Below are positions 15,396-40,216 of a DNA stretch of 64,000 bases, piece after piece. The DNA comes from an uncultured Candidatus Saccharibacteria bacterium (GTDB taxonomy: Bacteria; Patescibacteriota; Minisyncoccia; Phycocordibacterales; PCTT01). The stretch spans positions 132,581-196,580 of the forward strand of contig CAZMIM010000001.1 in the NCBI GenBank assembly GCA_964566505.1, read 5' to 3'. The notes beneath the pieces were generated by a model, which saw only the letters and a list, made by a program, of their open reading frames with translations, had not been told where the DNA came from and did not search any database. The stretch's first letter is position 1. Each line of letters opens with the position of its first letter. The position numbers and the translations under genes are program-made.

Positions 15396-15618
15396 GGAAG
15401 CATTCCATGATCTCCTGAGCCTTCTGATAGCGTGTTTTGGCTTGTACGTGGTTGTGTACGCGATGGGTATGGCTAAAACTCATCCCGTCGTAGCAGCTGG
15501 ACGACTTGTCGGATCATCCTTGAGGTTCGTTCTACGCTGTGTCGGCGGAGCCATGATTGGCCTCGGAGCAGGACTATTCTTTTCCTCCCGTTCTCCGAAA
15601 AGACGGCTGAAGGAATGA
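15394..15618 (+). CDS. Small two-TM membrane protein (74 aa)
   Basis: Hydrophobic segments LLSLLIACFGLYVVVYAMG and GGAMIGLGAGLFF. Its stop overlaps the coupling-protein start. Confidence 0.35.
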   Translation: MEAFHDLLSLLIACFGLYVVVYAMGMAKTHPVVAAGRLVGSSLRFVLRCVGGAMIGLGAGLFFSSRSPKRRLKE

Positions 15619-17612
15619 GTAATTCATCGTCCGTTATCCTGCTAGTTCTCCTGATCTGGATAGTGCTTCACACAGTGCTGTTCAAATTGAAGCTGGTCGA
15701 ACGGCATCCAGCCCGATTGATCGGTTTCCGTGTAGGCCGTGTGTTGCGCTTTCTGGTGTTGGCTCCTTTCGGCGGTGTTCGAATCCTGTGGCGACTGATA
15801 TCACAGAATTCAGTTCAAGCCGACTCTTCATATGGTTTCATGCCACGGTGGAGTCGGTTTTTCTTTATCAGGAAATGGTTTCGCCGCCGAGGAATTGTAG
15901 TAGACTCCTCCCTACGACGCCTGTCGGAGTCTGTGAGTCAGCGACATGTTCTTGTCTGCGCTCCGAGCGGAGCCGGGAAGTCAACCCGGGTCATTATTCA
16001 GCAATGTCTCGCAGTCGAGCGCGCTGACCATACGCTCATTCTTACGGATCCGTCAGGAGAAATCTGGAGGGCGACAAGCGGATATCTCTACTCAAAAGGA
16101 ATGCAGATCAGGGCGCTGAACCTAAGCGATCCCAGCCTCTCAATATTGTACAACCCTCTGGCTCGTTGCGAGACCAAGAACGACGCACTCCAACTCGCAC
16201 GGATCCTTATAGACTCAGCCTATCCCTCTCAGAAAGGTGACATTTTTTGGACGGAGGCTGCAGTTGGATTCTTAGGCTGCATTCTGACAATGTTGAGGAA
16301 CGGACCTGCTGAGTATCGAAATCTCGCAAACGCGTATCGCCTGATTCTCAAAGCCGGATCCGACATAAGGGCACTCGACGATCCCATGTCCAAGTATGCA
16401 GACGAAGACACTTTTGCTTCCTATGCATCGACCGTCGCTTCACCGGAGAAGGTCTTTCTGAGCATTGTGGCAACCGCACGTGTCGCCCTGCAGCCACTTT
16501 CGAACCCTATCCTTTCAAGATTGACCTCAGATGATTCACTTGACATCGCTTGTCTAAGGGAGTCACCCTCCTGCCTCTATGTGATCATCGAGGAGACCGA
16601 ACTCAAGTACTACTCCTTCCTCCTCAATTGCCTCTACACCCAGCTGTTCACAGCCTTCTCCAAATCACAGGACGATCAGCTTCCTGCCTACGTACTGCTT
16701 GATGAGTTCGCACATACTCGAATCCCAAACTTCCCATTGATGGCCACAACACTCCGAAAACGAGGCGTAAGCTTGCTGATGGCAATACAGTCGACAGGAC
16801 AGCTTGATGCGGCATACACGCCAACAGGAGCGCGCATCATCCGAGAGGGAGGCTCAAACACTCAAATATTTTTCCCCGGCTTGCCGCATTCAACTTGTGT
16901 CGAGATATCTCACATGCTTGGTCGAAACCGGCGTGACTCGGGAATCGGCAAAGTATCCGCTTCAGCTGGACCTCTCATGGCTCCAGAAGAAATTCGAACG
17001 CTTCCTGAAGATCGAGCGCTATTGGTGAGCACGAATAGGCAACCGGTTTTACTTCGAACAAAGCCCTACTTCCGCAACCGCCGATTGAAAAAGAGAGCAG
17101 AGCTTCCACCCGTCGATTCCTTCCCGGAAACCGTCCTGACCGGGCAAACCGCTCCTGAGATCCAATACATGCCTTTGCCATCTCCTCAACGTCAGACAGA
17201 TGGGCGCAGTACAGCCAACCCCGGAAGCTCACTTGCCGACCACAGCGGCACAGAGAAACCGGCAGATCCTGTTCCCACGATGGATCAACTGTCTGAATCG
17301 GTTGTGAAGCAGGTAGCTCAACGGGTATGTGAGCTCACAGGACCTGCCCTGAAGCAATCCATCCTACTCAATCAAATTGGATCCGATGCTGTCGTACCTA
17401 TGACAGATCTGATGGAAGCCCTGGGTATTTCGAGAGACGTAGCCGACCGGCTGCGAAACGAAGGCAAACTCCGTCCGGTCGTAACGAAGAATGCCAGGAA
17501 CAGCCGTCTCTACGTGTCGATCGGTCACGCCAGAAATCTGTGCCGGCAACTCAAAGAGGCTCCGATTCCATCGAAGCGAAGAAGTATGAGTCGCACTAAA
17601 CCTAAAAAATAG
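15615..17612 (+). CDS. Type IV coupling protein (VirD4/TraG/TraD-like conjugative ATPase)
   Basis: 665 aa. N-terminal TM helices, Walker A VLVCAPSGAGKSTRV, Walker B-like YVLLDEFAH. Followed directly by MobC-like and relaxase genes. Confidence 0.7.
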   Translation: MSNSSSVILLVLLIWIVLHTVLFKLKLVERHPARLIGFRVGRVLRFLVLAPFGGVRILWRLISQNSVQADSSYGFMPRWSRFFFIRKWFRRRGIVVDSSLRRLSESVSQRHVLVCAPSGAGKSTRVIIQQCLAVERADHTLILTDPSGEIWRATSGYLYSKGMQIRALNLSDPSLSILYNPLARCETKNDALQLARILIDSAYPSQKGDIFWTEAAVGFLGCILTMLRNGPAEYRNLANAYRLILKAGSDIRALDDPMSKYADEDTFASYASTVASPEKVFLSIVATARVALQPLSNPILSRLTSDDSLDIACLRESPSCLYVIIEETELKYYSFLLNCLYTQLFTAFSKSQDDQLPAYVLLDEFAHTRIPNFPLMATTLRKRGVSLLMAIQSTGQLDAAYTPTGARIIREGGSNTQIFFPGLPHSTCVEISHMLGRNRRDSGIGKVSASAGPLMAPEEIRTLPEDRALLVSTNRQPVLLRTKPYFRNRRLKKRAELPPVDSFPETVLTGQTAPEIQYMPLPSPQRQTDGRSTANPGSSLADHSGTEKPADPVPTMDQLSESVVKQVAQRVCELTGPALKQSILLNQIGSDAVVPMTDLMEALGISRDVADRLRNEGKLRPVVTKNARNSRLYVSIGHARNLCRQLKEAPIPSKRRSMSRTKPKK

Positions 17613-17717: not shown

Positions 17718-18101
17718 ATGAGCTCGACACTGAAAGACAGAAAACGAAAATATCTTCAGGAGCTTCGTCGCACCTATACCAGAGTGGATTTGATGATTCC
17801 GCCCGAGGAGGCAATCGTGATTCAGTCGGCTGCCCGGAAGCACGGAATCAAAGTTGGAAAGCTTCTTCGTGTGGCAACGCTCGCGTACCTGAATCAAGAA
17901 TTTGTGGTACCGGATCCGGAGGTCGTTCGTGCCTTAGAGCTACAGATCCGAAGAATTGGAACCAACATCAATCAAATTGCTCGTGCTGCGAATCGGAGCC
18001 GCTCGGTTTCAACTCAGAATATCGAAGATGCGTTTCACCTTCTAGCCGAACTGGAGGACGTCATTGATCAAGCATTTAGGCACCCGGATCAAAATCGATG
18101 A
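17718..18101 (+). CDS. mobC: MobC-family mobilization (relaxosome accessory) protein
   Basis: 127 aa. RRTYTRVDLMIPPEEAIVIQSAARKHGIKVGKLLRVATLAYL matches the MobC pattern (RRT..v.vRls.eE...lk..A...g.svs..lR). Confidence 0.55.
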   Translation: MSSTLKDRKRKYLQELRRTYTRVDLMIPPEEAIVIQSAARKHGIKVGKLLRVATLAYLNQEFVVPDPEVVRALELQIRRIGTNINQIARAANRSRSVSTQNIEDAFHLLAELEDVIDQAFRHPDQNR

Positions 18102-18676
18102 TCATCAAGTCGCTTCGTTGGAAATCTGCCGGATTCAACCGCTTAGTTGACTACGTAGCCAAACATGCCGAAAACAAACAAGCGTTCCGTGTATTTCACA
18201 ACATGCTGCCTCACAGCGATTTATGTCGAGTTTCTGACGAACTGCGAACGAACGACGAGTACAGAAATGTGAGGCGGACTCCAACCGTGCTCTATCACGA
18301 AATCCTAGCGTTCCATCATCTCGACGGTGACGACCTCACTTCGCAAGCGCTTCAGGACCTAACAGAGCAGTACCTCCGAATTCGAGCGCCAAATGGCCTC
18401 GGATTCGCAATGCCACATTTTGATTGTGACCATGCACATGTGCACATTGCCTTGTCTGGAGTGGAATTCAGATCAGAGAAGAGCTTGCGAATGGACAATC
18501 GGAGATTCAAAGCCGTTCGAGAACAGATCGAGATGTACCAAATGGATAACTATCCCGAACTAACACATTCTCTCGTTTATGTTGGGAAGGATCGCATACG
18601 CGTCCAAACAAGGCTCAAAGAACTTGAGTCCATTCGATTAATTCGCGCCTTTGAACCAGGACTCGAGAAGAAGTAG
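18098..18676 (+). CDS. Relaxase/mobilization nuclease domain protein (MobA/VirD2-like, short)
   Basis: 192 aa. Starts MIIKSLRWKSAGFNRLVDYVAK..., His-triad motif HFDCDHAHVHIAL (HxDxxHxHxH). Overlaps the mobC stop. Confidence 0.55.
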   Translation: MIIKSLRWKSAGFNRLVDYVAKHAENKQAFRVFHNMLPHSDLCRVSDELRTNDEYRNVRRTPTVLYHEILAFHHLDGDDLTSQALQDLTEQYLRIRAPNGLGFAMPHFDCDHAHVHIALSGVEFRSEKSLRMDNRRFKAVREQIEMYQMDNYPELTHSLVYVGKDRIRVQTRLKELESIRLIRAFEPGLEKK

Positions 18677-18766: not shown

Positions 18767-19252
18767 TTACACGAATCCTCTTTCCGCCAGACTCACATAG
18801 TCATCGTCTCCGAGTATCAAGTGGTCGCGGACAGGTATCGCCAATAGCTTTCCGGCTTTGACGAGCTGCTTCGTGATGTGTATGTCTTCACGGCTTGGCT
18901 CGGGGTTTCCTGACGGATGGTTGTGAGCCGCAATCAGACATGAGGCATTCGCCAGGATTGCTGCTTTGAATACCGCCCTTGGCTCAACAACGCTTTGACT
19001 CAAACCTCCAACCGATACTGAGCACATGCCCGTCAACGTCATCGCTGTGTCCAAGAAGCAGATGATGAACTCTTCACGGTCGTGCAGAATGAAATAGGCT
19101 TTTAGAAGCTTTGCCAGTTTCCCCGGCGTGTTGATCTTTTCCCGCTTGGCGAACGAAAGGGTTCGCTCCCGAATCAAGCGAGATGAATAGATAGGAATGA
19201 TAAGTCCAGGCTTCTCACTCTCAACCTCTTCGTCTAGGGGTTCTTTGTCCAT
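18767..19252 (-). CDS. radC: RadC-like JAB/MPN domain protein
   Basis: HNHPSGNPEPSREDIHITKQL JAB motif. Track ORF runs to 19441, but the likely start is MDKEPLDEEV at 19252; the upstream extension overlaps the neighbouring ATPase 3' end. Confidence 0.6.
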   Translation of the reverse strand: MDKEPLDEEVESEKPGLIIPIYSSRLIRERTLSFAKREKINTPGKLAKLLKAYFILHDREEFIICFLDTAMTLTGMCSVSVGGLSQSVVEPRAVFKAAILANASCLIAAHNHPSGNPEPSREDIHITKQLVKAGKLLAIPVRDHLILGDDDYVSLAERGFV

Positions 19253-19373
19253 CGTATTGACCTCCTGATATGAAATGATCTGTGGGCTAGAGGCACATCG
19301 TGTGGTGCACATCCTCGTCCATCGTATCGGGAAGTCGATGTGGCAAGTAGACGGTTTTTCGGGGTGAACCTGT

Positions 19374-20570
19374 CTACTTGTCAAAGGGGTATCGTCTGGG
19401 GTCAAGTGTATCGGCACTGAATGGCTTGGACACAGCACCATCGATCATCATTCTGAGGTAGATCGAGTGGTTCGGCAGATTTTCGAAGTCTTCGAACGAG
19501 AACTTGGGATAGAACTCCTTCGCCATGATTCTGGAATCAGTCGAACCCAACCTAAATGAGATTATGGTGCCCACGTTTCCAAGAATGGCTTCTCTCATTT
19601 CTCGGTCTCCTTGCCCTGTGTATTGCTGGCAAATCGCCAAACATACCTTGTATTTACGAGCCTCAGAGAACATCTGGTAGAAAACAGGGGATGAGTAAGC
19701 ATGGACCTCATCTAAATAGGCCGAAAAGTCTCTTCGTCGTTCCTCAGGAGTGTCTGCTCGCGCTAGTGTTGCAGTCTCCAAAGATGCCATCAGCAAGCCT
19801 CCGATTAGGTAGGCAGTATCTTCTCCGACTTTTCCTTTCGCCAGGTTGACCAACAGTATTTTTTCACTGTCGATGATGTCTCGAAGGTCGACGCTTTCCC
19901 CTTTGCCCGTCAGGAGGTCAAATGAAACGGGATTGGCAAGAAATGCCCCTGTTCTGTTCAGAATTGGTGCAATGGTTTCGGCTCTGTATCGAAGAGGAAT
20001 TTTCTCATATTCAAGTCGCCAGAATCTTCGCACTTCCTCATGTTTGATGTATGGAATGACCCCGTTACGAAACGATTTGTCCTGAAGCATCCGCGGAATG
20101 TCTCGGAGCGTGGCATTAGGCAAGTACAGCAATGAAATCAGAGTCATCCTTAATTTGTGTTCCATCGCCGGTCCCCACCAGGAGCTCCATAGTTTCTTGA
20201 ATGTGTTTAGGAGGCTTGAGGCAACAAGAACCCTCTTGTCTTCGGGGACATCTCTCAGTGGATTGAATGAAAGCAGCATGGATGCATGCGGCAGATTGAG
20301 ATCCACGAGCCGATGCTGATCTGCAGGTCCAATACGACGCTTCACATTTTCGTAAAGGTCGCCGTGGGGATCAACGAGCATAAATCCGCGCCCACGCCGG
20401 ATGTCTTCCGCTGCGAATATCTCTAGCAGACTGGATTTCCCGGTTCCTGTTTTTCCGAGAATGTAGATGTGTGACCGCCTATCGATACCATTTCGGATGC
20501 CAAACACCGTTTGGCGGCCTCGGTGATTGGTCCGGGCGAAATATGCAATTTGATCCTCGTCATTTCGCAT
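19374..20570 (-). CDS. P-loop NTPase of conjugative/mobile-element type (TraD/TrwB-like or HerA/DUF87-like)
   Basis: 398 aa. Walker A ILGKTGTGKSSLL, Walker B-like SAYLDEVHAY. No TM helices. Confidence 0.5.
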   Translation of the reverse strand: MRNDEDQIAYFARTNHRGRQTVFGIRNGIDRRSHIYILGKTGTGKSSLLEIFAAEDIRRGRGFMLVDPHGDLYENVKRRIGPADQHRLVDLNLPHASMLLSFNPLRDVPEDKRVLVASSLLNTFKKLWSSWWGPAMEHKLRMTLISLLYLPNATLRDIPRMLQDKSFRNGVIPYIKHEEVRRFWRLEYEKIPLRYRAETIAPILNRTGAFLANPVSFDLLTGKGESVDLRDIIDSEKILLVNLAKGKVGEDTAYLIGGLLMASLETATLARADTPEERRRDFSAYLDEVHAYSSPVFYQMFSEARKYKVCLAICQQYTGQGDREMREAILGNVGTIISFRLGSTDSRIMAKEFYPKFSFEDFENLPNHSIYLRMMIDGAVSKPFSADTLDPRRYPFDK

Positions 20571-21032: not shown

Positions 21033-21428
21033 CTATCCCTGCTGCACTTTCTCTTGGGCAAACAAGAACTTGACCATCACATTTGTAAGTTGCCACAAAG
21101 GCCCAAACGAGGAGCCGATAAATATTCTCCAGGCCCATTCGTCGACATCAAGTTCGTAAAGGTTGAAAGCGTCCACGACGAACAGCGTTGCCACTAACCC
21201 AAGCCAGACGCTAATCCAAATAAGTGACATCCAGAGAAAGCAGCCTCGAAATGAGTGTCTCTGGTTACCATCTCGAATCTTTTGCCTACCCAATTCGTCA
21301 CCAAATCGCCGTGTTCTTGCCTCGACATCTTTCCTGTCCTCGTCGGACAAGTGGCTGAGAACCGACAATTCATCGATTGACCCAGAACTGATGAGGTCAT
21401 ATTTGGTGTCTTGCTCAGCCTTTGCCAC
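21033..21428 (-). CDS. Small membrane protein; candidate toxin partner of the upstream Panacea-domain protein
   Basis: 131 aa. Charged N-terminus, two C-terminal TM helices (CFLWMSLIWISVWLGLVATLFVV). Overlaps the upstream gene by 14 nt. Confidence 0.4.
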   Translation of the reverse strand: MAKAEQDTKYDLISSGSIDELSVLSHLSDEDRKDVEARTRRFGDELGRQKIRDGNQRHSFRGCFLWMSLIWISVWLGLVATLFVVDAFNLYELDVDEWAWRIFIGSSFGPLWQLTNVMVKFLFAQEKVQQG

Positions 21429-21921
21429 CGCCTTCGCCCCCTTGTCTTTCTTTCAGGAGCTTCTCGTAGTGCTCCTTAATAAGATCATCGCCAATAGGCT
21501 CGCCGGATGGGGGATTTCCTTCAAACATCACCTTAAAGACTTCATACCAAGGCGTCCCAGGCATATGGGTGATGTCGGAGAGTGTGAATGCGTCCATCTT
21601 CTTGTACGCATTCCATACGGACTTGACGAAAGATCTCGTCGAAGTGTCATCAAGCGGGATCTCATCGTCTCCGATAGGTGCAGTTACAGCGCCTCTTCCG
21701 TATCGCTTGGTGCTTTTGTAGAGGTCACTGAAGACTGGTCCATAAGGCCAAGCCTCCGGAGCCCTGTCGACCAGTCGTCGTCCTCTTAATCCAAGGCTCC
21801 AACCATGGGCCACATAAACGAGCTTGATCAGCTTCATGGGCGACAAAGATTGACCTTCTTCGCTTGCCAGCTTGAGAAACTCGTTTGCTATACTTGCAAC
21901 AGAATAGGGGCGATCCATCAC
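21415..21921 (-). CDS. Panacea-domain (SocA/GepA/DUF4065-like) protein, putative antitoxin
   Basis: 168 aa. MKLIKLVYVAHGWSLGL...EAWPYGPVFSDLY matches the DUF4065 signature (KL.KLlY...G...W..GPV...Y). Confidence 0.55.
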   Translation of the reverse strand: MMDRPYSVASIANEFLKLASEEGQSLSPMKLIKLVYVAHGWSLGLRGRRLVDRAPEAWPYGPVFSDLYKSTKRYGRGAVTAPIGDDEIPLDDTSTRSFVKSVWNAYKKMDAFTLSDITHMPGTPWYEVFKVMFEGNPPSGEPIGDDLIKEHYEKLLKERQGGEGGGKG

Positions 21922-22009
21922 GGTAGTGGCTCAATGGATTTTGTTGTACGACAATTGGCCTCGGATGTTTTACTTTCCACGTAACCACTAAACCTCATTC
22001 AGAGTTCAA

Positions 22010-22603
22010 ATGGCACTATTGGATGCACATATCCGAGAAGCGATCATGTTAAACTTGCTGAGCGATGAGGATGGGAATTCCGATGTCGTAGTTGAGGAAT
22101 TGGCAGTTTGCAATGGTAGAGCTCGTGTAGATCTTAGCTTGATAAATGGGGCTCTGCACGGATTCGAAATCAAGAGCGAGGCAGACTCTCTCAAGCGCCT
22201 GAAAACTCAGAGTGTCCATTACTCAGCTGTCTTGGACTATGTGAGTTTGGTTGCGGCTCCAAAGCACATCGAAAGCGCGGCAGAGATAGTTCCAGATTGG
22301 TGGGGGATTATAGAGGTTGAGGATGCAAGCTCTGGGGTACAATTCAGAGTAGTTCGAGACGGTGAAATTAATCCAGATCCGCACCTTCCAAGCATAGTTC
22401 AATTGCTGTGGCGATCCGAGATGGAAGAAGTGATTTCCAACTACTTCCCAGAATTGAAGGTTACGAGATGGAATAAGCGAGAGATATCGGAATACCTGGG
22501 ACAAAATCTTTCCCGCCAGATACTTTCTTCGGAGGTGAGGAGATTGATCAAATCGAGAGAAGACTGGAGACTTGATCAACCACTTTCCGGATATGGTGAT
22601 TAG
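22010..22603 (+). CDS. PD-(D/E)xK-like protein resembling the sce7726 family
   Basis: 197 aa. EELAVCNGRARVDLSLINGALHGFEIKSEADSLKRL has an E...D...E-x-K arrangement. Convergent with and overlapping the next gene. Confidence 0.45.
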   Translation: MALLDAHIREAIMLNLLSDEDGNSDVVVEELAVCNGRARVDLSLINGALHGFEIKSEADSLKRLKTQSVHYSAVLDYVSLVAAPKHIESAAEIVPDWWGIIEVEDASSGVQFRVVRDGEINPDPHLPSIVQLLWRSEMEEVISNYFPELKVTRWNKREISEYLGQNLSRQILSSEVRRLIKSREDWRLDQPLSGYGD

Positions 22604-23633
22604 TGCCAATTTCAATCCATGATGTAGCATTCCCGGTGCCAGAATATTCTTCAGCGATATCCTTGATACGCTTGTCGCCCCACGAATAGTCCTCTCCTTC
22701 GTAGTAACCTGAATTAATGATCTCGGATGCGATGTCAATGTATTGCTTGTAGCCTCTCGGCGAGTGCTTGAACGGCTTGCCTCGGTGAATGGCCCAAGTC
22801 TCATTCAATGTATATTTCACCTTCGGTCCCATAACGTTGACCATTGCAGGGAAATTCAAGTCGCGTAAATCTGGTGGGTCAATACCATAATCAGAAAAAG
22901 TGGGTGTCTTTGTCCCAGGCGTTAGTTGAGCCAATAGATCTCGATAGAGGGTCCATCCAGTTCTTGCGATTTCTCCTTCACTCTCGGTTGGTATTCCACT
23001 GCTGGTCAAGTTGAGTGGCATGCCAGTTCCAGAAACCGAGGTACTTCTCCAGTCGCTCGTAGTTGGCAATGATTCGAGAAATGTCTTCGCCCATTTGATA
23101 TAGGTGGCTACCTGGGAGCTTGACACGGACTCAAAGTCGAGTAGTAGGTCTACCTCGGATGCCGAAACATCAAAATTGGTCAGTGTCTGAGCCAAGGTCG
23201 AGACGGTAACAGCTGGATCGTCATCCATCTCGTCAGTCAAGATTCTGATGCAAAGTCCATTGGCACCGGTAGCGAGGCATTCCTTGACTGCACCTTCGTA
23301 CTGACTTGATCGACTGAGCGAAGTTGCAGGTGTGAGAGTTGGGTTGAGAGGGCGAATGTGGTTGTGAAAAGCGAAAAGACAATGTGAATCATCATCACAA
23401 AGTTCGTCCACCATTCTCATGTCGACAATTAGTCGTCTGTCAGTATTTAAGAACCTCTTTATATATCCTGCTTTACTCTCAATAAATGAGTCTACGGAGT
23501 CCTTGTTGCGCTCGTGCGGCTGAATATGTGGTACATCTAATAGTGGCACGATGAGAGAACTCGTAATCGAGTCGAGTTCTCGAATTGCTCGGCATTCTCC
23601 TGTTTTGCCTTTGATAATTGGGAAGTAAATCAC
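22548..23633 (-). CDS. Protein resembling the sce7725 / Beta-protein (PF14350-like) family
   Basis: 361 aa. N-terminus MIYFPIIKGKTGECRAIRELD resembles the Beta-protein family start (YVPILKxKxGEfxAL). This assignment is from memory. Confidence 0.4.
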   Translation of the reverse strand: MIYFPIIKGKTGECRAIRELDSITSSLIVPLLDVPHIQPHERNKDSVDSFIESKAGYIKRFLNTDRRLIVDMRMVDELCDDDSHCLFAFHNHIRPLNPTLTPATSLSRSSQYEGAVKECLATGANGLCIRILTDEMDDDPAVTVSTLAQTLTNFDVSASEVDLLLDFESVSSSQVATYIKWAKTFLESLPTTSDWRSTSVSGTGMPLNLTSSGIPTESEGEIARTGWTLYRDLLAQLTPGTKTPTFSDYGIDPPDLRDLNFPAMVNVMGPKVKYTLNETWAIHRGKPFKHSPRGYKQYIDIASEIINSGYYEGEDYSWGDKRIKDIAEEYSGTGNATSWIEIGTNHHIRKVVDQVSSLLSI

Positions 23634-24019
23634 TCTCTTGTGCCGCTCATTAGTAGTTGTGTCGCAAGGGCCAAGGTCCTTAAGAAATCAGGCGAACCAC
23701 TAAGCCTATTACTTGCTGAGACCAATTGCAAGGATAATACTACCCATTTTCAGAACATGTGGGGTGCCTATGGTGCTGCGGCAACTATCAGGAATAGGGA
23801 TCACGGAATAGTTACCAATCAAGCGCTTTTGAGCCTTACTGAAGAACCACTGAGAGCCGCTGAGACACTAGTATATTTGTACCATTCTTTGACTCAACGT
23901 TGACAGCGGGAACACAGAAGGCATACTGAAAGATGTAACAGTAAACCTAACAAACCCCCTAGCATCATGACACGTATCAAAGGAAACAATGACGGCCCCA
24001 ACGGCCGAAATGAATCATC

Positions 24020-24586
24020 TCAAATTGGAAGTAGAAAGAATGTGTCGAGGACACAGACTGTACGAGAGGTAAAAGCAGGAAAACACCCTGGAGCGCACGT
24101 AGTGAAGATCAATAAGCGCGAGTATGTCAGAGACAACCCCGACAGATCAAAGAAAGACAACGTAAACAGAAATCGGTAATTGATATGTCTGTATTTATTG
24201 TCACATGGGATCTGAATAAAGAAGGATTGAACGGCTCCGTGTAGTACTGAGCGCGCACGACGAACCGATACCCGGTACTCGTCGATTAGGTGCTGAGCCA
24301 ATACTCTGCGACGTGCTGGCCCTATAGTTTTTTTGATAACGTCCTGCAGCATCTGCTTATCCAGGGACAAGTCAGCCACCAGCTTCTTCAATTGGTTGTT
24401 CTCGGCTTCAAGCTGGCGTAGACGGCGAAGCTCAGAGGTCCCAAGACCTCCGTACTTCTTCTTCCAATTGTAAAAGGTAGCCTCGCTGATGCCCATCTTG
24501 CGGCAAACCTCGGCTACCTTGGTCCCGCTCTCTGCTTGGCGCAGGGCGAAGATGATCTGGCTCTCGGTAAACTTCGACTTCTTCAT
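24020..24586 (-). mobile_element. IS3-family transposase OrfA remnant (HTH plus leucine zipper; OrfB truncated after its first residues)
   Basis: MKKSKFTESQIIFALRQAESGTKVAEVCRKMGISEATFYNWKKKYGG...LEAENNQLKKLVADLSLDKQMLQDV, then LIDEYRVSVRRARSVL (OrfB start), then unrelated sequence. No DDE domain follows. Confidence 0.6.
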
Positions 24587-25058
24587 GGCAATCACGTTTT
24601 TGTCTGATTGTACGTAATCGCCCGGAAACTCTACTATTGAATGGACCAGTTTATGGGAAGAGGTCATATGGTACGACGTCCACGGGAGCCCGGTAACCGT
24701 GCGCCATACGGGGCCGATGGTGGTTGCAATCTCGTTGCCATTCGACGGCTTTGTCGAGTGGCGCTGATAGACTATTTCATAATTGCGCAGGACAGATAGT
24801 GCTGAACCATAACCTATAGAAGTACGAGATTCGCCTGACCGAGCACCTGTGGTGGGACACCTGTACTCTTAGATAGTAAAGCCACTTACTGGACCTAAAC
24901 AACAAAGCTTTTAGACCATTTCGCCCAATACACTTAAGATGCCTTACGCCATGACTCCCTTGAAGGCCTCTGCCTGCCCTCTTTTCACTATAGTCTAGAA
25001 ATGCATGTCTAGAAAAAACCTATCGGGTTTCACTCCCGATAGGTTTTAACACCTTGCC

Positions 25059-25352
25059 TCAACCTGCGTGAGACAAGACATCGATTACTTGATAGTAGGC
25101 CCCTTCTTTCTTGAGCAGCCCATATATCTCTAATTCTCTAAGAAGGTCACGCAGAGACAATGTTCTGTCAACTTCATGAAAACCATTGGGAAGTCTCCTC
25201 AGAAATACCTCCTCAAGCTCAGATGCCGTAAACGGTGTATCTAGTGAGTAAATGGTGTCAAACAGAATCTGACGATTCTGCTCATACTTGTCTATAGCGG
25301 TCATGTGATTACCTCCACAGGTGCAGTCATTTGATTTAGGAATTCGTCCCAA
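25059..25352 (-). CDS. Small hypothetical protein, 3' partner of the HD-domain gene
   Basis: 97 aa. Start overlaps the HD gene stop by about 50 nt. No recognisable motif. Confidence 0.3.
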   Translation of the reverse strand: MGRIPKSNDCTCGGNHMTAIDKYEQNRQILFDTIYSLDTPFTASELEEVFLRRLPNGFHEVDRTLSLRDLLRELEIYGLLKKEGAYYQVIDVLSHAG

Positions 25353-27295
25353 AGCAATTCGCCCAAACGCCTTCGCATTTCTGGCAATGCCTTATCCATA
25401 TCAATGCCGAAAACAAAAACATAAAATGGTGGAATAAAAAGGGATCTTTCTTTTAATCTCTTCGCCACATCCGACACATCTGAGATTGGCACAGTCGATG
25501 CCGAATCACCACCTTCTTCTTTCTCCCCATCGCTCTGATTAATTGCGAGAGGATCTGAAGGACTCACTCCAGGTTTTACCTTTATGGGAGCATAGAAAGC
25601 GTCCTCGATTTTATACTCAGCCACGAGACGTTTAATGGCCTTGTCCAGTGAAGTGTACAGCCACGACTCTTTTCTCTTACCCAAATAGAAGAACGTCTGC
25701 TCAAGATGTGACAGCAACAATCCTCCTCCATTGTAACCTTCTTCCCGAGATTTAATCAACTTCACAATCTCCAATAGATGTGGTTGAACTCTGGCTTTAA
25801 GATCCTCCATTCCTGAAGAAATGATGTCACCGAGCGATGCCCAATTAGTACCGCTAGATGCCTCCTGAAACGCTTTATCCACCTCCCAAAAATCGTCTAA
25901 CCTCTTGTAAAGGGTTACGTATCCTTTTCGCCCCGAAAGCAACTCATCAAGCATCTTTTTGACAGCTTGAGACGTTTGGGGGGAATGATTATAGTGACGC
26001 AAAACAGTAATCAACCACGAATCATCCCACTGAGACACTCTAGTTGCAAAGTCGGCGGGCGTATCTGCCATTCCGCCCTCAAAGGCTATCCACAGGCCCG
26101 AAATATCAATAGGTAGTTGGGTGCCCCTAAATGCCTTTCTCTTTTGCTGACCGGCTTCAGATCTATTTTCGAGTTGGTCCTGGGCCAAATGTCTAATCGC
26201 ACGCCTCATGAGGCCGTCAGTCTTTTTAACCCTATGATGAGATACAGCATACCTATAAAACTCAAAACGCCGCTCCAACACCTCCTCCACTGTACTAATA
26301 GACCTTGCAGATGGGAGAAACAAGAATGGTGAAACGCCTTTATTATCGTCATCAAAGCTAGGGTTCTTAACTAGCTGAAATGAGCTTAACAACCTCTCTA
26401 TTCCTACGGGCTGCCTCCCCAAGGCCGTCATGACTCTATCCCTAGACACAAAGTCCAGCCTATCGACGTCAATTACGCCGTCTATCATTGACTTCAGACT
26501 GCTTTCTCTACCGATCCCATTCTTTCTCAATGCCCTCAACGCCAACTGGCCAACTATAAATTCGTTATATCTTGACTGCCTCGATGTCAGTCTTTTGGTT
26601 GCTTGAGTAATTATCTCTCGCGATAAACGCTCACTAACTCCTTCATGAAAAGACGGAGGGTTAAACGGAGATAGCAGGTCAACAAAATTTTTCTTCGCTG
26701 ATTCGTCTTCTAGGTCCTCTTTGATGTACTCGTTGTAAATGTCAGTAAGTGCAAATTCCGCGACATGAGAGAAAGGTGGATGACCAACATCATGAAGCAA
26801 TGCCGCTATTCTGGCAGCTTGATAGCTGGCCAATAACAGATTGGCCCGTTCGCCATGTCGGGTGTTCTCTAGGTTTGTTAGAACTCCCTGATAGAATGGG
26901 TGATCAAAAATAAGATCACCGTTATCCTTAAAATCTACTTGCTGTCCCCCTCTGCCATCTAAATCACTAAAAGTATGCGCGTAGTGCGAACCAAAAGTTT
27001 GCTCGTCTTGCTCTATTTCCGATATTTCCTCACCAATTGAATCTAGAAATTCAGAAACCGTCTTCTGAGAGGCATTTTTAATCCCCGAAAGAAACACTTT
27101 TCCGGCGATGTGCATGCATCCGATTGAATGGCTAAATCTTGAGTGCCGAGCTGACGGGAATGTTAAGTAGAGAGTAGAGGTTTGCAGCACATTGTGAAGC
27201 CGATTGAAAATTGTGGTCGACAATACTGCTTTTTCAAAAGGACTTACAGGAATAGACTCATGTATGCTATCCGCTATATTCGTAATCTTGAGCAT
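25301..27295 (-). CDS. HD-domain phosphohydrolase, dGTPase (Dgt/SAMHD1-like dNTP triphosphohydrolase) family
   Basis: 664 aa. FSHSIGCMHIAGKV (first His) and LLHDVGHPPFSH (HD...H) match the dNTPase HD signature. Confidence 0.6.
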   Translation of the reverse strand: MLKITNIADSIHESIPVSPFEKAVLSTTIFNRLHNVLQTSTLYLTFPSARHSRFSHSIGCMHIAGKVFLSGIKNASQKTVSEFLDSIGEEISEIEQDEQTFGSHYAHTFSDLDGRGGQQVDFKDNGDLIFDHPFYQGVLTNLENTRHGERANLLLASYQAARIAALLHDVGHPPFSHVAEFALTDIYNEYIKEDLEDESAKKNFVDLLSPFNPPSFHEGVSERLSREIITQATKRLTSRQSRYNEFIVGQLALRALRKNGIGRESSLKSMIDGVIDVDRLDFVSRDRVMTALGRQPVGIERLLSSFQLVKNPSFDDDNKGVSPFLFLPSARSISTVEEVLERRFEFYRYAVSHHRVKKTDGLMRRAIRHLAQDQLENRSEAGQQKRKAFRGTQLPIDISGLWIAFEGGMADTPADFATRVSQWDDSWLITVLRHYNHSPQTSQAVKKMLDELLSGRKGYVTLYKRLDDFWEVDKAFQEASSGTNWASLGDIISSGMEDLKARVQPHLLEIVKLIKSREEGYNGGGLLLSHLEQTFFYLGKRKESWLYTSLDKAIKRLVAEYKIEDAFYAPIKVKPGVSPSDPLAINQSDGEKEEGGDSASTVPISDVSDVAKRLKERSLFIPPFYVFVFGIDMDKALPEMRRRLGELLWDEFLNQMTAPVEVIT

Positions 27296-28078: not shown

Positions 28079-28474
28079 GTGGACCCTAACCTATTTGTTG
28101 CGGACTGGGAGAAGATCTTCGAGGCATTGATGTTCATCATCGTGTCTTCTTTCATTGTCGAACGATTTCTGGCATTGTTGTTCGAAAGCCGATTTTGGAT
28201 TGAAAAGGTTGAATCCAAAGGATCCAGCCTCAAAGAAGTCTTGGCACTGATTGTTAGCGTAACCATCTGTGTTTACTGGAGCTTCGATGCAGTTAGCATG
28301 ATAATCCCATCTCAACCTACGACTACCCTTCTTGGAGAAATAGTCACCGGAGGTGTGATCGCAGGAGGTAGCAAAGCATCCGTGAAGCTCTTCCATGATC
28401 TTCTGAAGATTCAAAGCTCCGCTAGGGCTGCAAAGAAGAAGGGCGACCAACCAACCAACGAAAGTCAGTCATGA
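28079..28474 (+). CDS. Hypothetical membrane protein
   Basis: 131 aa, about three hydrophobic segments. Stop overlaps the nuclease gene start. Confidence 0.35.
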   Translation: MDPNLFVADWEKIFEALMFIIVSSFIVERFLALLFESRFWIEKVESKGSSLKEVLALIVSVTICVYWSFDAVSMIIPSQPTTTLLGEIVTGGVIAGGSKASVKLFHDLLKIQSSARAAKKKGDQPTNESQS

Positions 28475-29547
28475 TTGGATCAAATCCTTTCTCGAATTGC
28501 AGGTTTTGGCTTCTCTTGTTCGTTCTCTTTGGCTCTGCGAGTACCACAGTGAGCTCGGAAATCACCCTGGACTATCTGGAAGTGAGAAGAACCACTTCGA
28601 TTCGTGGAGAACCTGTCGCAGGAGGAATAGAAATTGCCCAGGTGGAGAAAGGGGAATTCTTGATTCTGCTAGACAATGGAGACCAGATGGGTGGTTTCTA
28701 CCACGTTAGAACACGTTCAAACGCTGATGGGTGGATTTACCGGTCTATGGTCAGACGGTACAGAGGCGAAATGCCTTCTCCCAATATCACCGGTGACGAC
28801 GCATTTGACGACCCAACGTATGCACTCCCACAAACCCTCCAGGAGGCAGCAGCCGCCCATTTGAGACACGGCAAACCACAGGGAACTTACGAGCGAGTTA
28901 GAGCGGGATACGCCTATGCTGTTGATCCTCGTCTAAGAATCCCGATTTGGGTGCAGTATGAACTCAAAGCATCAGACCTTGGCCGAGAAACGCAGCGATC
29001 AAATGACTTCAGGCAAGACACCTCTCTTCCAGATATCGCTCGAGCCGCGCTAGAGGATTATGCCGGAAGCGGGTTCGATCGGGGGCACATGGCACCTGCT
29101 GGAGACATGGTCAGAGACAATAATGTCATGTCGGAGAGTTTCTACTTGTCAAACATGGCACCGCAAGTTGGAATAGGTTTCAACAGGCACATATGGCGAG
29201 ACTTTGAATCAAGCGTACGCTCATGGACAGAATTGATCGGAACAGTCACCATCATCACCGGCCCGGTATTTATGGCGTCGAATGGAATGGTTGAGTACGA
29301 AGTCATAGGTGATCGAAATGTCGCAGTGCCAACGCACTTCTTTAAAATTGTCGTCGACTTTAGCGACCCCACCCAACCACAGTCAGTCGCGATTCTGATG
29401 CCCAACGAATCCCTTACTGGTCACACTTACCTGGAATTTGTGACCACAATCGATGTTATCGAAGATCTCACGGGACTTGATTTTTTTAACCGGATTCCGC
29501 TGCCTGTTCAAGAGCAATTTGAAAGCATAGCCAATCCAAGTTTGTAG
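28471..29547 (+). CDS. Secreted DNA/RNA non-specific endonuclease (NucA/EndoG family) with N-terminal SH3-like domain
   Basis: 358 aa. Signal peptide FWLLLFVLFGSAST. Catalytic DRGHMAPAGD and SNMAPQ (metal-binding Asn) as in Serratia nuclease. Confidence 0.65.
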   Translation: MIGSNPFSNCRFWLLLFVLFGSASTTVSSEITLDYLEVRRTTSIRGEPVAGGIEIAQVEKGEFLILLDNGDQMGGFYHVRTRSNADGWIYRSMVRRYRGEMPSPNITGDDAFDDPTYALPQTLQEAAAAHLRHGKPQGTYERVRAGYAYAVDPRLRIPIWVQYELKASDLGRETQRSNDFRQDTSLPDIARAALEDYAGSGFDRGHMAPAGDMVRDNNVMSESFYLSNMAPQVGIGFNRHIWRDFESSVRSWTELIGTVTIITGPVFMASNGMVEYEVIGDRNVAVPTHFFKIVVDFSDPTQPQSVAILMPNESLTGHTYLEFVTTIDVIEDLTGLDFFNRIPLPVQEQFESIANPSL

Positions 29548-31455: not shown

Positions 31456-32859
31456 CTACCACTTGTTGCGAATGTAGCGCATCAAATTGAAGAGGTGAGT
31501 ATAATTTTGCTCGCCTGGCTTGTGCTTCAGAGAAGCCCCAGAGTTGTGAGAGGCCTCCTCATTTACAATCTGAGCGATGATTCTACTCGATTCATGGTCG
31601 GGTAGCATCTGATAAACAGACGGAATGAGGAAATCATGCCGAAAGGGCTGAATACGCTTGTTCTTTGGCTTGCTCTTCAGAACTTTCGCTCCATGGATAT
31701 ATCTGCTTCTTAGCTCCTTTGGCCAAAAATCAGGATCCTCATCATCGTAGTCATCGTCTAGGATCGCTTTCTGGGAATAAATATTCCGCGCCGTTTTGAG
31801 GTTGTTTCCAATCTTGTGTCCAAAAAGCTTGCCAGCCTTTACGCGAGAGTAGGCGATCTTCTTGATGGGAGATCCTATGAGTGATCCAAGAATCTCGTCG
31901 ACACTGTCATTGGCTGAAATGATGTTTGCCAGCCAAACACCCTGTGAGGACAAACTGTACTCAGGGGAATTGATCAAGGACAATACAGAGAAACGATTGT
32001 CTGGTAAGTAGTTGGTTGTGCTTAGGTCTTTAAATGCACTCTTGGGGTCACCGTACAATCCGCTAAACCACTTTATGGCAGTGCCCAAGAATTCTGCCCA
32101 CTCCGTGTTGCCGGTGCTTCTCGCGTCTTCATATCCCGCCGTAACGAGCTTATACAATTGCTCAAAATTTATGGCATCGGGCAATGCTGCAGCTAGAGAG
32201 GGAAACACATTTGTGTTGACGGACAAGAGAGAAACGACGAACTCGAGAAGCGTACCGGTTACGTGCTCCTGATTCATGGGATTGGCAAACGGAGCTCCTT
32301 GGTTTGGGCTGTTGATAGTAATGACTGCCGACACCTTGTTTTCCTTGAACACATACCTATCCAGGAATGCCAAGTATCTCGCAACGGTACCTCCTTGAGA
32401 GTAGCCAACGAGGATATTGAAATCGGCCTCCTCGATTAGATCATAGTACCCGACTCCACGTGGGGTAGCCATGTAGCGGCCGTTCTCGATGTCAAAAATA
32501 TCGTAGTTGTTTGCCTTGTCCCACCACGAATAAAATAGCTCGTCACTTTCGTACAGGTCGTGATAATGAGCTAGAATGCCGTTCAGTATCTCTTTCCCTG
32601 ATTCGTCCAAGCCAGCCGTGTCTTGATATCGGTCCCCAATGCACTTGATCGGAAATGGCACGAAGTACTCAACCTTCGGCATGAGCTGATACTTGCTTTC
32701 TCCATCGGGATTACTCCGCGTACAGAAAGTCGGCCGGAATCGTTTTCTCACCTCTCCATCGCTAAGATGAGTAAACATATTTCTCAGTTCGCCCAGCTTC
32801 CCTGATACGAGATCAACCGAGCGGTTGATGAACCATATTTTGACAGTTTGACGGGCCAT
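31456..32859 (-). CDS. Alpha/beta-hydrolase fold protein (lipase/esterase-like)
   Basis: 467 aa. GxSxG nucleophile elbow GYSQGG. Start overlaps the stop of the upstream hydrolase gene. Confidence 0.5.
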   Translation of the reverse strand: MARQTVKIWFINRSVDLVSGKLGELRNMFTHLSDGEVRKRFRPTFCTRSNPDGESKYQLMPKVEYFVPFPIKCIGDRYQDTAGLDESGKEILNGILAHYHDLYESDELFYSWWDKANNYDIFDIENGRYMATPRGVGYYDLIEEADFNILVGYSQGGTVARYLAFLDRYVFKENKVSAVITINSPNQGAPFANPMNQEHVTGTLLEFVVSLLSVNTNVFPSLAAALPDAINFEQLYKLVTAGYEDARSTGNTEWAEFLGTAIKWFSGLYGDPKSAFKDLSTTNYLPDNRFSVLSLINSPEYSLSSQGVWLANIISANDSVDEILGSLIGSPIKKIAYSRVKAGKLFGHKIGNNLKTARNIYSQKAILDDDYDDEDPDFWPKELRSRYIHGAKVLKSKPKNKRIQPFRHDFLIPSVYQMLPDHESSRIIAQIVNEEASHNSGASLKHKPGEQNYTHLFNLMRYIRNKW

Positions 32860-34352
32860 CAGTAGTCCTTTCGATCTAGGTTCAATCGATCACGGAGAAT
32901 CTGCAAGTGATCTGCCTTCTCGCCTTCTGCAGTATTCACATCCCAGTATTTTGTGTGTTGGAATCCTTTCGGTTTGGCTCCAAGTGATACTTTGATATCA
33001 GCAACGCCTGGTCCGAATAGAGGGCCAACCGGCCCTCCAATTGGGTCCCCCTTATACAGATATCCCTCGGGAAAGTAGAGGTTGGTCCATCTCGTGGAGC
33101 CGAATACTGCAGCATGATGTGCTTTCCAAAAGCTGTCATCGTTGCCTTCGCTTCGCGATCTGTAGGAAAATCGTTCTCTCGAATCGAAGGTCTCCATCTG
33201 CGGCGGATCGGTCGGAAACCAACGCTGGTTAACTTTTTCACTGAAAGCTTCCTGGGACGCTACGACAAGCATATTTGCATGAGCCAGCGGCGAACCCAAG
33301 GTTATGAAGTCAGAAATTTTCCAAGGAGGATCCGACTTGGAAAGTTGCTCACGATACCGATGCTTAGCTGCCAAGTATGCGCTGGAAGCGGCTTGAAGCT
33401 CATCTTTCAGACCTTTCTGTTCAAAGTCGTCAGAGGAAAGCGTCTCCGTCGGTGCTGCCTGGTTTCTCTGCCTCTCCCGAATCCTCTCTAGCCCTTCCGC
33501 TGCTTTCTCTACTTCCCTCAGAACACTCAGCGCCTCTGAACCCTGATTGTCCCTACTCTCAAGATTGGGAAACCTATAATTCGCCCAGAGGGCGCTCAGA
33601 GCATCGTAGGCGACCAAACTACCTAAACTATGGCCCACCAATACCACTCGATCGTAATCACCACTATCATGAACTGACCTAAGCAGATCGATAGCTCGCT
33701 TCCTTATATGATTGCGAATAGAAACATTGCCTGCACTGTTGTGCAAATATCTTGCAGCATCTCCTATGTATTTTACAAAGGCACCCTTCCAGATGAATAG
33801 CATCGCTGCAATAAAGAGGAATATGTTGGGTAGATACTGGACGATAGAACTTCCAAACCCATTGTATCCCTCTAGCCAGTCGAAAAGGCCAAAATCAGGC
33901 AGAAACCAGCTAGCGAGTGAAAGTCCCAGGATGGGCAAAAGTGCGATCACTGCCCACCATATTTTTCGTACCGACCCCGTCAGAGTGGTTGGCGCCCTGC
34001 CAAGTAGTGGAAGCAGCCATCCAATGACATGAGTGAGCGTATTGCCACCCATCATATCTTGCCAGTAGACCTCGTAAAAATCAGTTCTCACAGTTCCACC
34101 TTCACCACCTTTAATCACGGCTGAGTTGGTAGTAATTCGTCTCATTTCGTGAGAGTCATACTTAGTATCTGGCATGATCCAGTACTTTGGCCGCGCCCCC
34201 TCTTGTGCAATTCGAATATTTCCGTTTGTGCTCCATACGGCTTCAACGAATCCCATGATTGACTCCATTGGCTTTTGGTCACCAATGCCATGGATCAATA
34301 CTACCGCTTGCTTTTTTTTCATCGGAACGCCTCCTATCGTTCTTCGAGCCAA
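32859..34352 (-). CDS. Alpha/beta-hydrolase fold protein (lipase-like) with internal TM segments
   Basis: 497 aa. VVLIHGIGDQ (HG oxyanion-hole motif) and VLVGHSLGSLVA (GHSLGS nucleophile elbow). Two hydrophobic helices between them. Confidence 0.5.
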   Translation of the reverse strand: MARRTIGGVPMKKKQAVVLIHGIGDQKPMESIMGFVEAVWSTNGNIRIAQEGARPKYWIMPDTKYDSHEMRRITTNSAVIKGGEGGTVRTDFYEVYWQDMMGGNTLTHVIGWLLPLLGRAPTTLTGSVRKIWWAVIALLPILGLSLASWFLPDFGLFDWLEGYNGFGSSIVQYLPNIFLFIAAMLFIWKGAFVKYIGDAARYLHNSAGNVSIRNHIRKRAIDLLRSVHDSGDYDRVVLVGHSLGSLVAYDALSALWANYRFPNLESRDNQGSEALSVLREVEKAAEGLERIRERQRNQAAPTETLSSDDFEQKGLKDELQAASSAYLAAKHRYREQLSKSDPPWKISDFITLGSPLAHANMLVVASQEAFSEKVNQRWFPTDPPQMETFDSRERFSYRSRSEGNDDSFWKAHHAAVFGSTRWTNLYFPEGYLYKGDPIGGPVGPLFGPGVADIKVSLGAKPKGFQHTKYWDVNTAEGEKADHLQILRDRLNLDRKDY

Positions 34353-34847: not shown

Positions 34848-35960
34848 ATGCGTGTGAGTGCTCGGCGCAGACCCACCCATCTTGAGGCAAGAGTATCGCT
34901 CAACCGCAACCATGAATCTTTTCATTCATACACCATGACCAAAGAAGACGGTATACTTCGTGACGCTTTTAGGATTATTGGTGATACTATAAACATCGCT
35001 GGTTCCGAAGGCGTACTGATTGATCGCGATACGCTAGCAAAATATCTGCTGGGCTCTGAACTTCGAGAGCGCATTCTGGCCAGATCGGAATATAACTTCC
35101 ATGGAAAAGACAGCCCATTCGAAACAGCTGCCAACTATGTGGACTGGTTCAGTTCGTATGTGACACAAAGATCCGAAATAACGAAGAGTTGGAATAGAAG
35201 TATCTACCGGGCACGTGTGATCACTCAATCAGAGGCTACTGGGAAGGAACGCGAAATTTGGGCGTACTCAGTACGTTCGCCGACCACAAGAGGGCGACTG
35301 ATCTTCAGAGTTGGTGAAGGAGGTATAATTCGAGTTGGCCTAATCGGCAAAGACGGTAGATGGACAAATAGTGATGGACTCGAACAACTGCCTTGCGGAC
35401 TTTATACGGTTAATTTTGGACGGTGGGCGGCCACTCTGAAAGAGTTGGAGGATAGGATCAACGACCCGAATTGCTCTGAAGACGATTTGCAATCCTTCTT
35501 TGAAGAGAATCGTGAATTGCTTCAGGATACGAGGTATAAATCCGTAATTCCCGAAGCGGTCATTCATAGAGAGAGCGGGGAGGTTACTGCACCTTGGGAA
35601 GCCGACTTCATCCTCTCTCCTGCTGATCAAGAGGCATTCTGTAAAATCATTGAGTTGAAGCGCCCGCAATTTGGCACCATAAAAAAAGAACGACGAGGCC
35701 ACGCTAAGTTTTATCGTGAATTGCATGAGGCAATTTCACAACTCAGAGACTACCACGAGGCTTTCGATTCGATCAGCACGCGCGAAAAGTTTCAAGATCG
35801 ATATGGTGTAGAGGTTTTTAAGCCAGACCTTCAACTTATTATTGGTCGCCGATGGACATCAAAGGAACACCAAGCCATGCTAGTACTGCAACGAAGGCAG
35901 CATGTTGAAATACGAAGTTGGGACGGAGAGCTGGATCGACTTCGGAGGCTTTTTACCTAG
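34848..35960 (+). CDS. sduA: Shedu-like (DUF4263 nuclease domain) defense protein
   Basis: 370 aa. C-terminal half ...FFEENRELL...EADFILSPADQEAFCKIIELKRPQ...ISQLRDYHEAF...PDLQLIIGR...VEIRSWDGELDRL parallels the DUF4263 core (D...E-x-K, LIIGR block). Confidence 0.5.
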   Translation: MRVSARRRPTHLEARVSLNRNHESFHSYTMTKEDGILRDAFRIIGDTINIAGSEGVLIDRDTLAKYLLGSELRERILARSEYNFHGKDSPFETAANYVDWFSSYVTQRSEITKSWNRSIYRARVITQSEATGKEREIWAYSVRSPTTRGRLIFRVGEGGIIRVGLIGKDGRWTNSDGLEQLPCGLYTVNFGRWAATLKELEDRINDPNCSEDDLQSFFEENRELLQDTRYKSVIPEAVIHRESGEVTAPWEADFILSPADQEAFCKIIELKRPQFGTIKKERRGHAKFYRELHEAISQLRDYHEAFDSISTREKFQDRYGVEVFKPDLQLIIGRRWTSKEHQAMLVLQRRQHVEIRSWDGELDRLRRLFT

Positions 35961-39388: not shown

Positions 39389-39403
39389 AATATTTAATTT
39401 TTG

Positions 39404-40135: not shown

Positions 40136-40216
40136 AGTAAGTTATATAACCTATCTTGATAGTTTATATAATATCATATATCACAAATAAAAATTTCCTC
40201 ATATACGAGGAAATTT

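Follow-up and report, generated by a model that had tools for sequence, protein, structure and literature searches.

Two anti-phage systems come closest to the locus described here. The gop-beta-cII system of satellite phage P4 makes E. coli resistant to lambda and P1; in the absence of beta, gop is toxic (Rousset et al. 2022, PMC9122126). Gop and beta have been described as toxin-antitoxin-like, the P4 genes are non-essential, and beta acts against Gop, a membrane protein, rather than against cII (PMC9122126). The toxicity of this system, which PADLOC and DefenseFinder list as gop_beta_cll, is triggered by the coliphage gene orf184 (bioRxiv 10.1101/2023.04.06.535777). PD-lambda-2 consists of a HigB-like component A, an Xre helix-turn-helix (HTH)/peptidase component B that is toxic alone, and component C (Vassallo et al. 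2022, PMC9519451). Component C, described as 'related to a P4 phage antitoxin', is dispensable for the neutralisation of B, yet defence requires it (PMC9519451). In this work, we analysed a stretch of 64,000 nucleotides (nt) from an uncultured Candidatus Saccharibacteria bacterium (hereafter the window), which carries an overlapping pair of genes, sce7726 and Beta, with relatives in these systems. We consider this locus, with a probability of about 0.6, to be an intact two-gene core of the gop-beta-cII/PD-lambda-2 kind, whose most likely role is in abortive infection or defence.

An initial annotation of the window had described the pair as two convergent open reading frames (ORFs) overlapping at their 3' ends, and both were found where it had placed them:

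22010..22603, plus strand: sce7726-family (P4 cII-like) gene, ATG start, 197 amino acids (aa)
22548..23633, minus strand: Beta-family gene (P4 beta / PD-lambda-2 component C-like), GTG start, 361 aa
22548..22603, both strands: dual-strand coding overlap, 56 nt, both stop codons included

Both genes are intact, with every invariant residue present. In the overlap, the final 18 codons and the stop codon of sce7726 lie opposite the final 17 codons and the stop codon of Beta, and in this antisense phase, the codon positions are paired 1-1, 2-3, and 3-2. The codon for H347 of Beta (22593-22595) is separated by 28 nt from the codon for W186 of sce7726 (22565-22567).

The family memberships were assessed with profile searches. 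The sce7726 product passes the NCBIfam sce7726 model NF033832 with 157.6 bits (E 3.2e-46; curated cut-off 70 bits), and the alignment extends over protein residues 5-184 and profile positions 3-183 of 184. The newer Pfam family PF26915 is found in the precomputed annotations of all 100+ sce7726 homologues, and PADLOC matched the protein to 'cll' (PDLC02989, 3.6e-31). The product of the opposite strand is a full-length member of the Pfam family Beta_protein (PF14350; 208.1 bits, E 3.2e-61; gathering threshold 27 bits), residues 3-352 being aligned to profile positions 1-341 of 342. It starts with MIYFPIIKGKTGECRAIREL, as had been read from the sequence before, and the PF14350 match begins at residue 3. 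PADLOC matched Beta over its full length to PD-Lambda-2_C (PDLC03983, 6.2e-59, and PDLC03984, 3.5e-54) and more weakly to 'beta' (PDLC02985, 1.4e-12). No NCBIfam family matched it at E <= 0.1, and therefore it falls outside the narrow sce7725 model. Thus, the original assignment stood for sce7726 and Beta_protein, but not for sce7725. In the NCBI annotation, the Beta gene (P0001) encodes only 333 aa, starts at V29, and lacks the conserved N-terminus. This start is 28 codons too late, since the Pfam match begins at residue 3 and the invariant E13 is cut off. Even the nearest relatives of the window Beta are only 30-35% identical to it.

The initial annotation had further stated that the pair has no assigned function. 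This is outdated at the family level, because P4 beta and cII are annotated as members of these families, and both gop-beta-cII (PMC9122126) and PD-lambda-2, with its component C (PMC9519451), have been validated as anti-phage systems. The window copy belongs to an annotated gene pair with known defence components among its relatives, and differs in that it lacks the toxin modules of both systems. The PADLOC check that had been proposed returned the component matches 'cll', 'beta', and PD-Lambda-2_C, but neither three-gene system was complete.

To analyze the pairing across relatives, we compiled two sets of loci. For the genome set, an sce7726 alignment was scanned against one genome per species, which gave 76 loci from Verrucomicrobiota, Bacteroidota, Bacillota, Actinomycetota, Acidobacteriota, Patescibacteria, Planctomycetota, Spirochaetota, Chloroflexota, Pseudomonadota, and other phyla. 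The reciprocal set consisted of the 80 metagenome contigs closest to the window Beta, 78 of which had enough downstream DNA. Beta was located directly downstream of sce7726 in 69 of the 76 genome loci. Among the seven loci lacking it, two end too early to tell and three match only part of sce7726, while the remaining two (L058 and L068) have a strong sce7726 match and sufficient room, yet no Beta. Conversely, a convergent sce7726 was found in 77 of the 78 Beta-selected metagenome loci. Of the resulting 146 pairs (69 genome and 77 metagenome loci), 145 are convergent neighbours and 143 overlap. The two families are therefore near-obligate neighbours, which bears out the earlier description of the pair as obligate. 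Such overlapping convergent pairs are likewise annotated in RefSeq on plasmids and in E. coli prophages, under the names 'beta family protein' and 'sce7726 family protein'.

The overlap itself is far beyond chance. Its length varies from 19 to 179 nt, but the distance between the two stop codons is, as in the window, 2 mod 3 in 144 of 146 pairs, and the spacing between the H347 and W186 codons is exactly 28 nt in 135 of 143 loci, including the window and an E. coli prophage. Many bacterial phyla, and phages as well, share this phase and spacing, so that the tail-to-tail overlap is kept almost to the base. The constant spacing indicates that the conserved cores of the two genes abut, so that each C-terminal tail is encoded antisense across the last conserved element of the other.

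We also looked for signals at the nucleotide level. Neither a consensus scan nor folding of both strands revealed a hairpin or terminator in the window overlap (z +1.06 and -1.69), and folding of the overlaps of 50 related loci gave no RNA hairpin signal (mean z about 0). The palindrome TTGATCAA occurs twice around the overlap, at 22544-22551 and at 22572-22579, the latter copy within the region of note, 22565-22585. This second copy is read as Asp-Gln in both genes (D189-Q190 in sce7726, D353-Q354 in Beta), and the double reading is probably a by-product of dual coding. The pair is bordered by two non-coding stretches:

21922..22009, plus strand: 88-nt spacer that separates sce7726 from the divergent Panacea antitoxin gene; presumed sce7726 promoter and 5' untranslated region
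23634..24019, minus strand: non-coding stretch 5' of Beta, 386 nt; presumed Beta promoter region

The role of the former stretch can only be presumed, since no match passed a sigma-70 consensus scan of 21922..22009. In the latter, the promoter scan returned a single weak promoter-like site (23897..23870), and only short, unconserved ORFs are present. Three ORFs that lie antisense to or beside the pair, at 22223..22804 (minus strand), 22006..22194 (minus strand), and 23640..23903 (plus strand), had no family matches and were rejected as genes.

In the sce7726 product, the initial annotation had recognized an E...D...EIKS arrangement and suggested a restriction-endonuclease-like fold. The arrangement is real (E30, D41, E53-I-K55-S56), and these residues are invariant in 26 homologues as well as in all 142-143 ungapped copies from 149 loci. 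It belongs to a larger motif set, E...D...ExKS..D...R...QxxxY, which is complete in the window protein (E30, D41, E53, K55, S56, D59, R63, Q67, Y71); E30, D41, E53, K55, and Q67 are essentially invariant over the 149 loci. A D...ExK...QxxxY set is the motif set of PD-(D/E)xK nucleases of the RecB/Cas4/lambda-Exo type. The AlphaFold2 (AF2) model, with a predicted local distance difference test (pLDDT) score of 91.3, shows an alpha-beta-beta-beta-alpha-beta core followed by a C-terminal helical bundle. In this model, D41 is located on strand 2 (38-45), E53 and K55 on strand 3 (49-55), and Q67xxxY71 on the next helix, while the bundle bears the LLWR and R183..W186-R187 motifs. No match to solved structures was found at the sequence level. 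When the model was searched with Foldseek, the best match was 3dnx (E 3.6e-5, probability 1.0), which is SPO1766, a protein of unknown function; SfsA, YaeQ, Bax1, and the Can2 nuclease domain were also matched. One homologue showed a weak match to the Pfam MmcB-like DNA repair family. Model and Foldseek search thus agree with the suggested fold: sce7726 is predicted to adopt a restriction-endonuclease-like PD-(D/E)xK fold and to have nuclease activity.

The AF2 model of Beta (pLDDT 94.3, predicted template modelling score 0.93) is a triosephosphate isomerase (TIM) barrel. Essentially invariant over the 149 loci are E13, D71, R130, D166, R224, D248, Y274, and H347, and D320 and H346 are near-invariant. 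D71, R130, D166, D248, and Y274 are located at strand C-termini, with E13 and R224 just past strands; all seven lie on the usual active-site face of TIM barrels. D320 and H346/H347 are found in the C-terminal helices. No solved relative was detectable by sequence. Foldseek matched many TIM barrels (probability 0.97-1.0, template modelling (TM) scores 0.3-0.4) and no particular family; ultraviolet (UV)-damage and apurinic/apyrimidinic (AP) endonucleases were among these weak matches.

We also inspected the region 5' of Beta. In many loci, an Xre-HTH/peptidase gene (~400 aa) is located there on the same strand, often together with a HigB-like gene (~105 aa), which corresponds to the gene order of PD-lambda-2. 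In the genome set, 26 loci have such genes upstream (25 an Xre-peptidase gene, the remaining one just HigB) versus 36 with neither; in the metagenome set, the numbers are 56 versus eight. Of the metagenome loci closest to the window Beta, 56 of the 64 with enough upstream DNA thus have an Xre-peptidase gene directly 5' of Beta, and this gene usually abuts or overlaps the Beta reading frame. A convergent, overlapping sce7726 is also present in the HigB-like/Xre-peptidase/Beta operons. Such operons with sce7726 were seen in L004, L005, L008-L010, L021, L034, L036, L039, and L041, and further ones in L050, L060, L064, L071, and others, as well as in L078-L157. Two-gene and four-gene loci are interleaved among the nearest relatives of the window (~30% identity).

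The window carries the two-gene form. PADLOC matched neither gop, HigB, nor the Xre-peptidase in the flanking ORFs, including 23640-23903 and 23967-24179, and when the whole window was searched by tblastn with P4 Gop and with 26 Xre-peptidases and 16 HigB-like proteins of related loci, no relevant match lay near the pair. Clustering of small ORFs 5' of Beta in 47 two-gene loci gave no conserved hidden third ORF. The two-gene form is found on a variety of mobile elements. In E. coli, it is present in the lambdoid prophage Rac-SA53 and on plasmid pSTEC1024_3, with a 41-nt overlap and next to hok, and 93 of 5426 complete genomes carry the module with at least 97.9% identity (at least 99.6% in all but one). 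A blastn search of these 5426 genomes with the E. coli Beta/sce7726 module returned the prophage two-gene variant only. The temperate actinophage Powerball of Gordonia (L160, 2009-3821) carries the pair as gp33/gp32 beside an integrase and HicAB, with an 89-nt overlap; gp32 is annotated as 'exonuclease'. On the Acinetobacter plasmid pNDM-AP_882 (L162, 2857-4300), Beta is truncated by IS30 and the overlap is 62 nt. Plasmids of several other genera carry the two-gene pair as well.

Next, we considered the genomic surroundings. The GC content is 0.46-0.54 from ~8 to 36 kb (~8400-36000) versus ~0.40 beyond. The following features were identified in this region:

8471-9739: tyrosine integrase
15615-17612: type IV coupling protein
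18098-18676: relaxase fragment
18767-19441, minus strand: RadC/JAB protein, directly downstream of the HerA/DUF87-like ATPase, 68-nt overlap
19374-20570, minus strand: HerA/DUF87-like P-loop ATPase (PADLOC mad8 3.9e-13, weak HerA)
21033-21428, minus strand: 131-aa ORF overlapping the Panacea antitoxin gene; hydrophobic stretch, judged by sequence a putative membrane segment; no family match
21415-21921, minus strand: SocA/Panacea-domain antitoxin (PF13274, 1.4e-14)
23967-24179, plus strand: DUF3892 ORF, 70 aa, overlapping the tail of the IS3 OrfA remnant
24020-24667, minus strand: OrfA remnant of an IS3-family insertion sequence (IS), HTH_Tnp_1 at residues 28-98; runs into unrelated sequence
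within 25059-27295, minus strand: HD-domain protein, 664 aa (weak PADLOC dGTPase match, 4e-06)
28471-29547: DNA/RNA non-specific endonuclease (7e-51)
31456-34352: two large alpha/beta-hydrolase-like proteins
34848-35960: Shedu SduA-like DUF4263 protein (PADLOC 2e-11)

The region looks like an integrated mobilisable or conjugative element with defence-like cargo, which is probably partly decayed. tRNA genes are located at 39403-48638, the tRNA-Trp gene (39403-39475) being ~3.4 kb past the 36-kb end of the high-GC region. The initial annotation had placed the pair between a toxin-antitoxin pair and an IS remnant, and this placement holds within the acquired island. On one side, the Panacea antitoxin gene and the gene for the small membrane protein (21033-21921) probably form a toxin-antitoxin pair of the Panacea type, the toxin being an uncharacterised membrane protein. 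On the other side, 386 nt separate Beta from the IS3 OrfA remnant, which is located upstream in the same orientation. The RadC and HerA-like pair could have a conjugation-related or a defence-related role. The HD-domain gene is a possible candidate for nucleotide-depleting or other HD-type defence; a 97-aa ORF without matches overlaps it on its downstream side (25059-27295).

How might the pair work? It probably represents the constant core of P4 gop-beta-cII and PD-lambda-2, carried as cargo on an integrated mobile element, and the two genes would suffice for function. The conserved fold and residues suggest that sce7726 would be the effector, an active RecB/Cas4-like PD-(D/E)xK DNase. Beta, whose TIM barrel has an enzyme-like, strictly conserved pocket, would partner this nuclease as sensor, regulator, or antidote. 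That the two are partners follows from their co-occurrence. Beta would silence sce7726 in uninfected cells and release or activate it upon infection, a role we infer from the neutralisation of a toxin by P4 beta and the requirement of PD-lambda-2 C for defence. As no hairpin or terminator was found in the overlap, each transcript should enter the other gene, and with convergent transcription through the shared 3' end, each mRNA would carry antisense sequence to the other. The overlap makes the pair genetically inseparable and would probably couple expression through transcriptional interference or duplex RNA. The outcome would be abortive infection or destruction of the invading DNA.

Several points weigh against this proposal. 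In both validated systems, the known toxic part is not the nuclease but Gop or the Xre-peptidase B. The published PD-lambda-2 clone stops 396 nt past Beta, and therefore any convergent sce7726 there would be truncated; if sce7726 does lie next to the PD-lambda-2 Beta, defence worked although it was truncated in the clone. The fold of Beta says nothing about a substrate, its Foldseek matches being generic TIM barrels at TM scores of 0.3-0.4. The scans and folding yielded no promoter or terminator evidence for the antisense-regulation step, and the PADLOC three-gene definitions of both systems are unmet in the window. Finally, the literature searched gave no experiment on the two-gene Beta/sce7726 module alone, and the literature on sce7725, sce7726, PF14350, and 'beta family protein' contained incidental annotations only.

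The pair might instead be what is left of a decayed PD-lambda-2-type system of four genes (HigB-like, Xre-peptidase, Beta, and a convergent sce7726), which lost the two genes upstream of Beta through an IS-mediated rearrangement; the leftover genes may then be inactive or only partly functional. Three observations fit: the match of Beta to PD-Lambda-2_C (6.2e-59) is far above that to 'beta' (1.4e-12), the Xre-peptidase gene is directly 5' of Beta in 56 of the 64 closest metagenome loci with enough DNA, and the IS3 OrfA remnant is located 386 nt 5' of Beta on the same strand. However, both ORFs are full length with all invariant residues kept, and tblastn sees no trace of Xre-peptidase, HigB, or gop near the pair. 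Moreover, the form with two genes is stable and frequently found (36 of the 62 informative loci in the genome set, 93 E. coli genomes), and it is interleaved with four-gene loci among the nearest relatives. We therefore regard decay as rather unlikely. That the pair stabilises the mobile element as a post-segregational addiction module, with an incidental anti-phage effect, appears improbable. The pair is always found on mobile elements, gop and beta have been described as toxin-antitoxin-like, and the overlap enforces co-inheritance, but relatives give measurable phage protection, and a TIM barrel of 361 aa that is conserved in the manner of an enzyme does not resemble a labile antitoxin.

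Two further explanations start from the nuclease. In a restriction-modification-like arrangement, Beta would modify or mark host DNA, comparable to TIM-barrel DNA transglycosylases, and sce7726 would cut unmodified incoming DNA. The genes of type II restriction-modification systems are often convergent, the active site of the nuclease is intact, and the barrel pocket of Beta contains conserved acidic, Arg, and His residues; UV-damage and AP endonucleases also appear among its weak TIM-barrel matches. Little credence can be given to this idea, though, as Beta has no specific similarity to DNA-modifying TIM barrels, all of its matches being generic, the validated relatives act as toxin-antitoxin-like abortive-infection systems and not by restriction, and P4 beta counteracts the membrane protein Gop and not cII. 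Least probable is a recombination or repair function for a phage or element, with an exonuclease and an accessory protein. The QxxxY-type set is common to lambda-Exo/RecB/Cas4-type nucleases, the Powerball homologue is annotated as 'exonuclease', the best structural match (3dnx) has no known function, and one homologue is weakly MmcB-like. Nevertheless, the partner is a TIM barrel and not an annealase, the pair occupies accessory, moron, or hotspot positions and not recombination modules, and the genes are non-essential in P4.

Beyond the two-gene defence core that we favour, a bolder version can be put forward tentatively. The pair might be an ancient, self-sufficient immune module, in which the overlap is the defining control and the transcripts are obligatory mutual antisense regulators. 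As a TIM-barrel enzyme, Beta might then sense or convert a cue in the form of a small molecule or a nucleic acid, with sce7726 as the nuclease effector. Gop and HigB/Xre-peptidase would be later add-ons, and sce7726 an overlooked fourth gene of PD-lambda-2.

The toxins of gop-beta-cII and PD-lambda-2 look unrelated, but Beta is common to both. Beta is almost always accompanied by a convergent sce7726 that overlaps it, and the constant part is this pair and not the toxins. The window provides a clean and intact two-gene version for asking what this core does alone. The overlap is among the more striking deeply conserved antisense gene overlaps in bacteria and offers a handle on regulation of an immune module by convergent transcription. 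Our results also suggest that the current PADLOC and DefenseFinder definitions miss the two-gene form as well as a fourth PD-lambda-2 gene.

Comparison with the known families and systems places the pair as follows. The RecB/Cas4/lambda-Exo nucleases, SPO1766, and, according to its model, sce7726 have in common an alpha-beta-beta-beta-alpha-beta core in which strand 2 bears D, strand 3 bears ExK, and the following helix bears QxxxY. In contrast to these nucleases, sce7726 lacks the Cas4-type iron-sulfur cysteine cluster, and its C-terminal helical bundle is its own. With respect to the conserved sce7725/sce7726 pair of NCBIfam, the window sce7726 passes the corresponding model, whereas Beta lies outside the sce7725 model.

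The P4 system (NC_001609) comprises gop (247-648, plus strand), beta (651-1718, plus strand), and the convergent cII (1746-2540, minus strand), and in RefSeq, beta has the name 'beta family protein', whereas cII is listed as 'sce7726 family protein'. The same two families are thus arranged convergently, tail to tail, on mobile elements in P4 and in the window. P4 cII retains the nuclease motifs E, D, ExK, S, D, R, and Q, and P4 beta retains E13, D71, R130, D166, D248, and H347 at ~19% identity to the window Beta. The window therefore contains counterparts of cII and beta, but no gop gene. Unlike the window genes with their 56-nt overlap, P4 beta and cII do not overlap and are separated by a 27-nt gap with an annotated cII terminator, and the motif spacing is 339 nt compared to 28 nt in the window. 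P4 cII, with 264 aa, has a C-terminal extension of ~70 aa, and the WWG and WR motifs are missing from it. A mutation of the cII terminator reportedly caused a temperature-sensitive phenotype, which was attributed to reduced beta expression (Ghisotti et al., J Virol 1990). If so, this result would be a direct precedent for antisense interference between beta and cII.

The likeness to PD-lambda-2 concerns Beta, which matches PDLC03983 over its full length (6.2e-59) and most of whose closest metagenome relatives sit in HigB/Xre-peptidase/Beta operons. In the window, component C is present, while A and B are absent from the region upstream and from the window. The published definition of PD-lambda-2 comprises three genes without sce7726, whereas the related Xre-peptidase loci carry a convergent sce7726, making it probable that sce7726 is an unlisted fourth gene of PD-lambda-2-type loci.

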